From NCBI GenBank assembly GCA_964405755.1, contig CAYOPF010000003.1, positions 1-46,658 of the forward strand: a stretch of 46,658 nt of DNA, given 5' to 3'. The position numbers and the translations under genes are program-made. The DNA comes from an uncultured Chloroherpeton sp. GTDB lineage: Bacteria; Bacteroidota; Ignavibacteria; Kapaibacteriales; UBA2268. Below the pieces are notes generated by a model that saw only the letters and a program-made list of their open reading frames with translations, made no database searches and was not told the DNA's origin. Below, in pieces: positions 1 to 2,020 of the stretch (position 1 is the stretch's first letter; the number at the start of each line of letters is the position of its first letter).

Positions 1-47
1 AGCTAAACAAAATATTTACAATACTTCGCTTAGCTCTCCGTCCGTTA
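1..47. repeat. Left copy of a perfect 47-bp direct repeat flanking the R-M cassette; it may extend beyond the window edge
   Basis: Read directly: AGCTAAACAAAATATTTACAATACTTCGCTTAGCTCTCCGTCCGTTA at 1-47 is identical to 1974-2020. The flanks diverge right after GTTA (CCAGCA vs TAGGGC). Confidence 0.95.
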
Positions 48-131
48 CCAGCAAGGCTAAAAAACCGACCACGACCGAGAAACCGTTGACAACTTCGGGA
101 CAATTTTGACCGACTTAACACATTAAAAAAG

Positions 132-139
132 TAACTTTG
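132..139 (+). promoter_or_regulatory. Candidate Bacteroidota-type -7 promoter element (TAACTTTG, consensus TAnnTTTG) upstream of the methyltransferase
   Basis: TAACTTTG lies 24 nt upstream of the ATG at 163, with TTTG at 105-108 as a possible -33 element. The same octamer class recurs upstream of several other genes in this window. Confidence 0.35.
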
Positions 140-162
140 CTAAATAAATTAGGACAAAGAAA

Positions 163-1128
163 ATGAGAGTAAAAGAGCCATTATTTGACTACATAAGCCC
201 AGACACCGATTATGCAATTAAAAACGGTGACTGCCTGACCGTTCTCAAGAAAATTGAAGACGGCAAGTTTGACCTCATTTTGACCTCTCCACCTTACAAT
301 GTGGGGAAATCGTATGAGACCAAGACAAGCATTGAAAAATACCTTGAAACACAGGAAGAAATAATATCTGAACTAGTAAGAACGCTTTCCGACAAAGGAA
401 ATCTTTGTTGGCAAGTTGGTAACTATGTTGACAAGGGAGAGATTTTTCCGCTTGACATATTCTATTACCAAATTTTTAAAAAACACGGACTGAAACTTCG
501 TAACCGTATCGTTTGGCATTTTGGGCACGGACTTCACGCCAGTAATCGTTTTAGCGGACGCTATGAAACATTACTTTGGTTTAGCAAGACAGATGACTAT
601 ATTTTTAACCTTGACAATGTAAGAGTTCCTTCAAAATATCCAGGTAAAAGACACTTCAAAGGACCTAAAAAAGGACAACCTTCGGGAAATCCACTTGGCA
701 AAAATCCGAGCGACATTTGGGAAATAATCGAACACGATTGGGACAAAGCAATGTGGGATATTCCAAATGTAAAATCAAATCATCCAGAAAAAACAGAACA
801 TCCTTGCCAGTTTCCAATTGAATTAGTTGAACGTTGCGTTTTGGCATTGACAGATGAAGGAAGTTGGGTTCTTGATCCATTTGCAGGTGTTGGATCAACT
901 GTAATCGGTGCAATTAAAAATAACCGTAACGGAATGGGAATAGAAAAGGAAAAGGAGTATTGTAAAATCGCTAACAAACGAATTGAAGACCTAAAAGAAG
1001 GAAGATTAAAAATTAGACCAATTAATAAACCAATCCATAAACCGACAGGAAAAGATAAGGTTGCTCAAATCCCAAAGGAATGGGCAGAACTTGTATTTGT
1101 TAACGGTAACGGAACAAACGGACACTAA
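163..1128 (+). CDS. Beta-class amino-DNA methyltransferase, probably N4-cytosine; the M subunit of a Type II R-M system
   Basis: Catalytic motif IV TSPPYN is near the N-terminus and AdoMet motif I VLDPFAGVGST near the C-terminus (IV-before-I order = beta class). SPPY is typical of N4C enzymes. The stop overlaps the start of the next gene (TAATG). Confidence 0.85.
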   Translation: MRVKEPLFDYISPDTDYAIKNGDCLTVLKKIEDGKFDLILTSPPYNVGKSYETKTSIEKYLETQEEIISELVRTLSDKGNLCWQVGNYVDKGEIFPLDIFYYQIFKKHGLKLRNRIVWHFGHGLHASNRFSGRYETLLWFSKTDDYIFNLDNVRVPSKYPGKRHFKGPKKGQPSGNPLGKNPSDIWEIIEHDWDKAMWDIPNVKSNHPEKTEHPCQFPIELVERCVLALTDEGSWVLDPFAGVGSTVIGAIKNNRNGMGIEKEKEYCKIANKRIEDLKEGRLKIRPINKPIHKPTGKDKVAQIPKEWAELVFVNGNGTNGH

Positions 1129-1742
1129 TGAAAATAGCACAAAAATATTCGCACCTGAATGGAGAAGAATACCTTATCGTTCATCACAAAAAACTTTACA
1201 AAGAAATCATTGATGTAATAGAAAGCATTGATGCTTCAAAGTTTTTGACTAAAGAGAGTAAGGAGAAAACAATGACTGGTAAAATGCTTTACAGTCCAAT
1301 TGAACTCAACAAAACTTTCAACGAAAAATTCAATCAACTTGGATGGCACGAGACAAGGTATCAATACTATGTAACGACAGAACAAAAGTTATTACCCGAA
1401 CTTATCACATTGCCTTACGATAAACAAAAGGACTTTTTGGTTTCAAAAGGGATAAAAGAACCTATTTCATCATACAAGCAAACTGATTTTGTTAAAGACC
1501 AAATAGCAGTTGAAGTTCAGTTTGGTAAGTATGCATTCGTAGCTTTTGACTTATTCGTAAAACATCTTCTCTTTTATTCTGGCGGTGTAATCAATCTTGG
1601 AATTGAAGTTTTGCCGACTAAGAAAATGCAATCACAAATGAGCAGCGGTGTTGCATATTACGAAGGAGAAGTTTATAATGTTCTTAGACACGGACGAAAC
1701 AATCCACCTGTTCCATTATTGATTTTGGGAATAGAACCATAA
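1128..1742 (+). CDS. BglII/BamHI-family Type II restriction endonuclease
   Basis: QTDFVKDQIAVEVQFGKYAF aligns with the remembered BglII active-site segment TDIDFGKRDTLVEVQFSNYPF, giving D120-x8-E129-x-Q131. The C-terminal PVPLLILGI resembles BglII PIRLVGLI. Its 204-aa size fits the family and it is translationally coupled to the methyltransferase. Confidence 0.75.
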   Translation: MKIAQKYSHLNGEEYLIVHHKKLYKEIIDVIESIDASKFLTKESKEKTMTGKMLYSPIELNKTFNEKFNQLGWHETRYQYYVTTEQKLLPELITLPYDKQKDFLVSKGIKEPISSYKQTDFVKDQIAVEVQFGKYAFVAFDLFVKHLLFYSGGVINLGIEVLPTKKMQSQMSSGVAYYEGEVYNVLRHGRNNPPVPLLILGIEP

Positions 1743-1771
1743 CGGACAGACAAGAAGCCCAGCAGGTAACA

Positions 1772-1884
1772 GCGGTTTGGCGTAATGGCGGGTGCAGTGC
1801 TTCGTATGACAGTTTAGCGGTAGGTTCAAGAGCAGTTCTTCGATTGAACATTTGTGCTAAAAATCCGCCACTACGCCAAGCCGC
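1772..1884. repeat. Imperfect palindrome A: 20-nt arms (18/20 complementary) separated by 73 nt
   Basis: GCGGTTTGGCGTAATGGCGG (1772-1791) pairs with CCGCCACTACGCCAAGCCGC (1865-1884). An inner 6-bp hairpin GTTCAA/TTGAAC lies in the loop. The region is clearly GC-richer than the surrounding DNA. Confidence 0.8.
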
Positions 1885-1921
1885 AAACCGTTCATCGAGA
1901 TTCGCTTCGCTCATCTCTATG

Positions 1922-2019
1922 AACGGACGGAGAGCCAAGCGTGGTTCGGCGAAGCGAACCATCGCCGAACAAGAGCTAAACAAAATATTTACAATACTTC
2001 GCTTAGCTCTCCGTCCGTT
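1922..2019. repeat. Imperfect palindrome B (attC-like): 20-nt arms (19/20 complementary) starting AAC and ending GTT
   Basis: AACGGACGGAGAGCCAAGCG (1922-1941) pairs with CGCTTAGCTCTCCGTCCGTT (2000-2019). The right arm lies inside the 47-bp direct repeat. The 58-nt centre contains the inner hairpin TTCGGCGA/TCGCCGAA. Confidence 0.8.
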
Positions 2020-2020
2020 A
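1974..2020. repeat. Right copy of the perfect 47-bp direct repeat
   Basis: Identical to 1-47, giving a repeat period of 1973 bp that encloses the M and R genes. Confidence 0.95.

Follow-up and report, generated by a model that had tools for sequence, protein, structure and literature searches.

Among the systems that collect genes for resistance and defence, integrons are the best known; a special integrase is their defining feature, and they are regarded as rare in Bacteroidota. Restriction-modification (R-M) systems flanked by long direct repeats were reportedly described by Furuta, Abe and Kobayashi in 2010 as putative mobile R-M forms. The present analysis concerns the left end of a contig from an uncultured Chloroherpeton sp. 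(CAYOPF010000003.1, positions 1 to 46,658, hereafter the window), where a Type II R-M gene pair stands between two copies of a 47-nucleotide (nt) direct repeat, the 47-mer. We conclude that this left end is very probably the far end of an integron-like array in a Bacteroidota genome, probably of the Bacteroidales, in which the R-M pair makes up one cassette, the 47-mer lies in a gene-less unit placed between cassettes, and a tyrosine recombinase would act at a G|TT crossover. Arrays of this type are common in Bacteroidota, and their recombinase seems not to be the classical integron integrase.

Integrons have been sparsely reported in Bacteroidota (PMC9024848, PMC8618304), chromosomal integrons are known to hold defence cassettes (10.1101/2024.07.02.601686), and Vibrio has gene-less ones (PMC11014356). 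The array resembles the sedentary chromosomal integrons, such as the Vibrio VCR arrays, in its co-oriented cassettes, in imperfect palindromic sites of ~135 nt with AAC...GTT boxes and a bulged base, in the G|TT crossover, in cassette 5′ ends that complement their own R″ box, and in sites that are homogeneous within a lineage. Cargo rich in defence and toxin-antitoxin genes is likewise shared with chromosomal integrons (10.1101/2024.07.02.601686). In contrast to the VCR type, the recombinases found here lack the IntI insertion and carry an N-terminal extension, the two sides of the site have spacers of unequal length (1 nt at 5′, 5 nt at 3′), the recombinase gene is co-oriented with the array on some platforms, and cassettes reach 7.4 kb (locus L029; loci gathered in the analysis carry L numbers). 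The attC-like 3′ units of Riemerella anatipestifer (aph(3′)-IVb, lnu(H), blaRATA; PMC13148043) belong to the same site family, and the aph(3′)-IVb fragment moved in experiments has the boundaries predicted here; the window carries defence rather than resistance genes, plus the extra gene-less unit. This unit recalls the gene-less cassettes of Vibrionaceae superintegrons (PMC11014356), being devoid of an open reading frame (ORF), cassette-sized, obedient to the boundary rule and recurrent in arrays. However, with just 127 nt it is practically only a recombination site, it comes after every site observed in this organism, and its Chryseobacterium counterpart has a copy that precedes the first cassette.

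In the proposed scheme, each cassette would carry one gene or a short operon and, behind it, an imperfect hairpin site of ~135 nt with the layout R″(..YAAC)-A-stem-loop-stem-5 nt-GTT(R′). A tyrosine recombinase would cut out and insert cassettes, with crossover inside the R′ box, after its G and before its TT, presumably on a folded single strand. Since the crossover falls within G|TT, the first bases of a cassette should be the reverse complement of the box opening its own 3′ site; we refer to this as the cassette rule. The circular R-M cassette is predicted to have the junction ..AAACCG|TTACCAGC.., that is ..GCCGCAAACCG|TTACCAGCAAGG.., and the circular 127-nt unit the junction ..CTCTCCGTCCG|TTCATCGAG...

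The repeat and the R-M cassette

The 47-mer is found without mismatch at 1-47 and 1974-2020, its only two occurrences in the window, and none of 100 shuffles matched. Right after the GTTA of both copies the sequences diverge, with CCAGCAAGG at 48 and TAGGGCATT at 2021. The sequence-only reading had noted that the left copy is cut and that the repeat could be longer. Both points held: the window is a complete contig of 46,658 bases that begins inside the repeat, and comparison with contig L002 extends the block common to the copies to ~165 nt. L002 is a 2.7-kb contig of a species-representative bin labelled Gammaproteobacteria, and it contains a different R-M pair, made of a 286-aa unknown protein and a PF01555 methyltransferase. 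The 54 nt before this pair and ~165 nt after it match the 1856-2020 block of the window with one or two differences, and the second unit copy of L002 is followed by yet another, different sequence. The cassette of L002 follows the rule at 8 of 8 positions (GTTATGCC versus GGCATAAC).

Conversely, the R-M cassette of the window recurs in other contexts, with nucleotide identities of 94% in L008, 89% in L029 and 88% in L003. Homology to the window starts at 42-44 (..CCG|TTA) and continues through the hairpin to ~1892; the sequences upstream of the starting point are mutually unrelated, and nothing of window 1893-2017 is present in any of the three loci. More distant R-M relatives (L009-L028, L030) are solitary chromosomal genes without sites, and are uninformative on the repeat. 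Because the same R-M pair lacks the repeat elsewhere, and because the repeat brackets an unrelated R-M pair in L002, the repeat is not part of the R-M unit. It is neither that nor a duplicated target, but a separate inter-cassette unit. Compared with R-M systems said to be flanked by long direct repeats, the likeness is thus limited to an R-M pair standing between two identical direct repeats: here the repeats are copies of an independent unit, they surround another R-M pair as well, and they are absent from relatives of this one.

The interval between the two 47-mers had been described as a translationally coupled methyltransferase and endonuclease followed by a GC-rich structured spacer. The coupled pair was confirmed, stop and start overlapping in TAATG, as was the structured character of 1743-2020, whose GC content is 44-48% versus ~36% around it and whose folding z is −7.0 on either strand compared to shuffles. 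The spacer, on the other hand, resolves into a 135-nt site and a separate unit. Treating 1743-2020 as one 280-nt site was abandoned after comparison with L003, L008 and L029. The site opens with the R″ box CAGGTAAC (1763-1770), one spacer A and a 5′ arm (1772-1792, bulged A at 1785); after the loop come the 3′ arm (1864-1884), the spacer AAACC (1885-1889) and the R′ GTT (1890-1892).

The unit itself is made of hairpin A (1890-1924), running from GTT to AAC, which abuts the long hairpin B (1922-2019), ending G|TTA and having GGACGGAGAGCCAAGCG / CGCTTAGCTCTCCGTCC as its stem; the 47-mer is the 3′ part of the whole unit. The unit follows the boundary rule of a cassette, its own 5′ end GTTCATCGA pairing with TCTATGAAC before hairpin B, which forms hairpin A. 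Four copies were found in all, two in the window and two in L002, each placed directly after a site, starting with GTT and ending with G|TTA. In this organism the unit follows every cassette site observed, so what looked like a direct repeat flanking the R-M pair is two copies of the inter-cassette unit. A 20-mer of the 47-mer matched neither viral contigs nor JGI metagenome contigs; a search of 185,579 species genomes gave L002 alone, apart from one chance match within coding sequence of a Lachnospiraceae genome (L001).

A unit of different sequence and identical architecture is present in four copies on the Chryseobacterium plasmid NZ_CP041688.1 (L155). It is 186 nt long and reads GTTGGGAAAAATCG..CGATTTTTCCCAAC, then GGCCAGCTCGGC...GCCGAGCTGGCC, then GTTA. 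Of the four copies, one is situated past the recombinase-proximal junction and before the first cassette; the other three come after sites. In metagenome arrays, no shared gene-less unit was found after the frequent GTTAGCGG starts. Our best guess for the unit is a gene-less cassette that copies itself, or else a landing site in reserve; a role as additional landing site, promoter or insulator is possible. For annotation, this means that where perfect short repeats flank defence genes at the end of a contig, they need not be target duplications but can instead be the recombination units of a cassette array.

An 8-bp inverted pair bounding the coding block, GTCCGTTA (40-47) and TAACGGAC (1740-1747), had also been pointed out. 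It is present in the window but is not conserved in relatives with the same cassette, where the counterparts are TAAAGGAC in L029 and TAACGTAC in L003. As one arm lies in the unit that such relatives lack, we treat the pair as coincidental. The meaningful complementarity is instead that of the cassette 5′ end GTTACCAG (44-51) with the box CAGGTAAC.

Features at the left end of the window (positions in the whole stretch)
Feature	Position	Strand	Evidence or remark
3′ end of gene-less unit, copy 1	1..44	+	identical to 1974-2017; cut by the contig end; ends with the G of crossover G|TT; unit continues upstream in L002
R-M gene cassette, 1846 nt (leader, methyltransferase, endonuclease, own 3′ site)	45..1890	+	homology with L008, L003 and L029
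Cassette leader with Bacteroidota-type promoter-like motif	45..162	+	TTTG 105-108, TAACTTTG 132-139
Type II DNA methyltransferase (N4/N6), SPPY motif	163..1128	+	PF01555 N6_N4_Mtase 1.6e-53; PADLOC MTase_II 5.9e-77
BglII/BstYI-family restriction endonuclease	1128..1742	+	PF09195 Endonuc-BglII 2.4e-25; PADLOC REase_II 3.1e-74
attC-type recombination site of the R-M cassette, ~135 nt	1763..1897	+	covariance model R1 147.8 bits, E 1e-37; folding
Gene-less two-hairpin unit, copy 2, 127 nt	1891..2017	+	folding z = −7.1; found in window and L002 only
Last cassette, NucS-type PD-(D/E)XK nuclease fused to EVE domain (ORF 2079-2951)	2018..3149	+	PF01939, PF01878
Decayed site ending the array	2988-3149	+	25 bits, E 1.7e-4; only 5′ half (2994-3103) recognisable

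The cassette rule and site structure across loci

In L029, a clean array from a WOR-3 genome bin, four sites delimit three cassettes, each of which agrees at 8 of 8 positions between its 5′ end, read from the GTT closing the preceding site, and its own R″ box (GTTACCGG/CCGGTAAC, GTTGTGCG/CGCACAAC, GTTGTGCC/GGCACAAC). The R-M cassette of the window agrees at 4 of 5 variable positions between GTTACCAG and the reverse complement of CAGGTAAC, and 8/8 is reached in L029 and L107.

A model was built from six aligned sites (covariance model R1; consensus stem of 19 bp, one bulged base, 11 compensatory pairs). Metagenomes were scanned with 20 nt of the site 3′ arm, and at least 120 contigs matched; none of those listed contains this R-M pair. 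Iterated nhmmer searches over the metagenome contigs and the other loci gathered by then yielded 226 site matches; AAC stands where it should in 178 of them, GTT in 193. For 91 cassettes bounded by two sites, the five variable bases could be compared with the cassette's own R″: the match was perfect in 68, and extended to at least 4 positions in 79. The mean match was 4.53, versus 2.51 +/− 0.10 with shuffled partners (maximum 2.90 in 2000 shuffles), and that to the adjacent box of the next cassette was 2.61.

Structure is conserved as well. Among 79 distinct sites, 92.6% of the cells pair, compensatory changes are seen in 18 of 19 pairs, and there is one bulged base. The covariation score is 0.665, compared to 0.144 for shuffles and at most 0.105 for slid controls, on an alignment fitted to the model, which favours structure. 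The sites thus have the attributes of attC: an imperfect palindrome at the 3′ end of the cassette, with an inverse core ..AAC and a core GTT..; a crossover between G and TT, with a cassette start complementing its own inverse core; and conservation of structure over sequence, an extrahelical base and a length of ~135 nt (attC sites range from ~57 to 141 nt). The family is broader than R1, since this model barely detects the shorter, ~75-nt site type (..CYAACATTGTATAAACG..CGGCCGACGGCC..) used by the array that lies downstream of the recombinase on the Rufibacter plasmid NZ_CP012644.1 (L158, 11700-16400).

Two observations on individual cassettes were made along these lines. The last L029 cassette (3529-11075), for which the rule holds 8/8, encodes a WYL regulator, a reverse transcriptase and a TOTE-type helicase system; its 7.4 kb are far above the usual size of an integron cassette. 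In JGI contig Ga0620604_000001 (L003, 8853-10718), the R-M cassette is circularly permuted, with the 3′ half of the site upstream and the 5′ half downstream, and a 10-nt direct repeat TTCAAGTGCA at both ends, resembling the integration of a circular cassette via the hairpin loop. A crossover in the hairpin loop as the general mechanism, at which L003 hinted, was rejected, because homology between contexts ends at G|TT, both in L008 and L029 and in the set of 91 cassettes.

Candidate recombinases and rival explanations

Within ~0.85 Mb of fetched loci holding ~200 sites, six loci gave tyrosine-recombinase matches. In L107, L155/L156, L157 and L158, the recombinase gene and a first-cassette junction conforming to the rule are separated by 95-145 nt; an attI-type junction beside a recombinase was seen in relatives only. 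In L107, the gene is divergent and 95 nt away from the junction GAGA|GTTACCGG, which opens an MvaI/BcnI-type R-M cassette ending in CCGGTAAC. On plasmids of Chryseobacterium (two records), Pontibacter and Rufibacter, homologs are found 105-145 nt upstream of first-cassette junctions, co-oriented with the array, and the rule at these junctions gives 8/8, 8/9 and 10/10 (the last in L158). The flank ..ACATATAAACAA|GTT is common to L155 and L156, whose sequences part exactly at this point, after AACAA|GTT. The array enzyme may be this Xer-like recombinase found beside first-cassette junctions elsewhere; the association is suggestive, not proven.

No protein in the ~0.85 Mb, the six matches included, aligns through the IntI-specific insertion. 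In a multiple alignment in which the IntI1 and XerD references were entered by hand, all array-linked recombinases have a gap of ~44 aa at the additional domain of IntI1 (~residues 207-250); they share a C-terminal SP(L/F)D motif and the N-terminal extension. Against TIGR02249 they score 181-207 bits, in two stretches, and do not reach the integron-integrase cut-off of 265. An IntI with its family-specific additional domain, the mark of a strict-sense integron, is thus lacking among them. We conclude that the array works like an integron cassette array and shows every attC and cassette property tested, and we do not file it as an integron in the strict sense because the only recombinases associated with it fail the defining IntI feature. 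Herein lies the interest of the site family: it obeys the integron cassette rule in ~90 independent cassettes and is frequent in metagenomes, yet only recombinases that fail as IntI stand alongside.

Related recombinase genes also accompany IS91-family elements (L088, 5600-6320; L089, 920-3070; L156, 11951-13893). These elements end ..GCTACCGRAGGTTTAGTTC against the AAC-A-GCGG of a site, or adjoin the first cassette, and appear to target arrays.

Several explanations compete with the integron-like array. The sequence-only reading put forward an R-M unit inserted with a long target duplication, in which a single chromosomal sequence was doubled. A perfect direct repeat exactly around the R-M pair and divergent outside is what such an event would leave. 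This explanation is nevertheless refuted, on the very condition that the sequence-only reading had set: the same cassette occurs without the repeat in L008, L003 and L029. In L002, moreover, the repeat stands on both sides of an unrelated R-M pair, and two more sequences, again different, come after it; and the stretch between the copies splits into a cassette and a 127-nt unit that each obey the G|TT rule. That reading's second option, site-specific cassette insertion, is the one favoured by the evidence, namely the G|TT boundaries and the cassette rule. It is also very improbable that the repeat is a miniature inverted-repeat transposable element (MITE) or repetitive extragenic palindromic (REP)-like element dispersed on both sides of the R-M pair, the 20-bp inverted ends (AACGGACGGAGAGCYAAGCG) being transposon termini. 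Hairpin B does contain an inverted repeat of 20 bp that is close to perfect, and the copies hardly differ. Instead of being dispersed genome-wide, however, as the sequence-only reading had allowed for, the two copies in 46.6 kb both lie at cassette junctions, with the L002 pair at the equivalent position; all four run from a site GTT to G|TTA, the 5′ end pairs with its own R″-like box in the fashion of a cassette, and the scarcity of matches to the 20-mer reported above does not fit a dispersed element. An assembly artefact, the internal copy joining non-neighbouring cassettes or a loop being wrongly traversed, is somewhat easier to envisage but still improbable. The contig begins exactly inside the repeat, the ~165-nt repeated block exceeds usual k-mers, and L002 likewise begins and nearly ends in the same repeat. 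Yet the junctions between site and unit and between unit and next cassette are independently present in L002 with other partners, the architecture recurs in finished plasmids (L155), and a wrong cassette order would leave the identity of the repeat unchanged.

A canonical integron, with a classical IntI upstream of the contig end and the Xer-like recombinases as unrelated neighbours, deserves more consideration, although we regard it as unlikely. It would account for sites that behave as attC in every sequence and structure property tested, and integrons have been reported in Bacteroidota, Chlorobi and Ignavibacteriae (PMC9024848, PMC8618304). On the other side stand the absence of the IntI insertion from the loci surveyed, the TIGR02249 scores below cut-off, and a VRprofile2 scan of the 100-kb region of Riemerella ATCC 11845 in which no integron was reported (PMC13148043). 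Some points do weigh against the integron-like array as we propose it. Canonical integron integrases may serve some of these arrays. The window, where the array is cut on its upstream side, contains no recombinase gene; the candidate recombinases are only 35-40% identical to each other, one divergent from and three co-oriented with their arrays; and since related recombinases travel with IS91-family transposases abutting sites (L088, L089), some of the adjacency may be due to insertion sequences. Within the window the pairing rule is imperfect (4/5 for the R-M cassette, 3/5 for the last one), and the order of cassettes across the internal ~165-nt repeat hinges on how the assembler resolved it. 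Finally, G.T and A.C mismatches are equally frequent in the sites (58 versus 64), so that no strand asymmetry appears and these counts do not show which strand folds.

Resistance cassettes, cargo genes and neighbouring sequence

Sites of this family were also detected in plasmids of Empedobacter, Riemerella and Adhaeribacter. On the Riemerella plasmid pRCAD0416RA-1 (NZ_CP073240.1), the covariance model places a site after each of seven genes, namely lnu(I), relE/HTH, blaOXA, tet(X), estT, a phosphotransferase gene and aph(3′), and the rule holds 8/8 for five of these cassettes. For aph(3′)-IVb, the prediction is a cassette in which a leader of 28 nt precedes the coding sequence and a site of 139 nt follows it. 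Experimentally, flanks of 27 bp and 140 bp co-integrate with aph(3′)-IVb in natural transformation without flanking homology (PMC13148043), so the predicted boundaries match those of the moved fragment. The mechanism of this integration was called unresolved by the authors in 2026, whose VRprofile2 scan of 100 kb flanking the insertion site in strain ATCC 11845 revealed no mobile element among the classes that the tool covers, integrons included (PMC13148043). Boundaries, a site model and a candidate recombinase make the question of homology-free integration directly testable.

In the Acinetobacter indicus plasmid p80-1-2-tetX3 (L160, 5052-7220), a truncated "xerD-like" gene, 45% identical to the array recombinase, lies beside tet(X3). 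About 175 nt past it comes GTTATGTGCC.., followed by tet(X3) and by a stretch that to the eye resembles the 5′ half of a site, for which R1 scores nothing. This xerD-tet(X3) module looks like a captured piece of a Bacteroidota platform. A wider proposal, which we find possible rather than probable, is that Bacteroidota and metagenome-assembled genomes of neighbouring phyla share a widespread analogue of integrons, with attC-type hairpins, the G|TT rule and an Xer-like recombinase devoid of the IntI domain but equipped with an N-terminal extension of its own. It would move defence cassettes as well as the tet(X), blaOXA, estT, lnu and aph(3′) cassettes of Riemerella, the Acinetobacter "xerD-tet(X3)" would be a captured fragment of it, and the 127-nt unit would be a self-copying, attI-like landing site. 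Literature searches, which covered papers available without subscription, found no description of such a system beyond the remark on Riemerella.

The R-M cassette associates a BglII-fold endonuclease with a methyltransferase of the N4/N6 class, as in Type II systems of the BglII/BstYI type. In its leader, TAACTTTG is invariant across the window, L003, L004, L008, L029 and L030, with variable flanks, and we take it to fit the TAnnTTTG −7 consensus; judging from the motif, segment 45-162 may act as a promoter. More than 7900 homologs of the endonuclease were found, the best 120 of which are all at least 86% identical. The protein is unusually conserved and widespread: the few homologs with a named source come from WOR-3, Ignavibacteriales, Bacteroidales and Flavobacteriales, and many homologs lie on contigs of just 1-3 kb. 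A test for avoidance of AGATCT/RGATCY gave no specific signal, as all GATC-containing hexamers are depleted.

The left end of the contig is the far end of a co-oriented cassette array. R1 detected no further site beyond 3149 in the window, so that the array ends at ~3100-3150; ordinary chromosomal genes, leuS among them, lie beyond. Exact-sequence look-ups of four window proteins retrieved no other contig, a search of phage records gave no match, and an Rfam scan of the window recovered only a tRNA, Rfam having no attC family. Just past the array end, a 254-aa protein (3139-3903) has some homologs annotated as SH3-domain proteins; its homologs are mostly found on very short contigs, as cassette genes are, although in the window it is not followed by a site. 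An empty site, with one repeat copy and no R-M pair, was sought via this protein and its relatives and none was found; the nearest relatives are 78% identical, and the one long contig examined (L159) showed neither sites nor synteny. At the other end of the window, a gene-free stretch of ~650 nt (44650-45300) contains several short hairpins of G/C runs, for instance CCCCCTCTCTTAAGAAGAGAGGAGG, and two ~80-nt copies, at 44868-44937 and 45130-45200, 262 nt apart.

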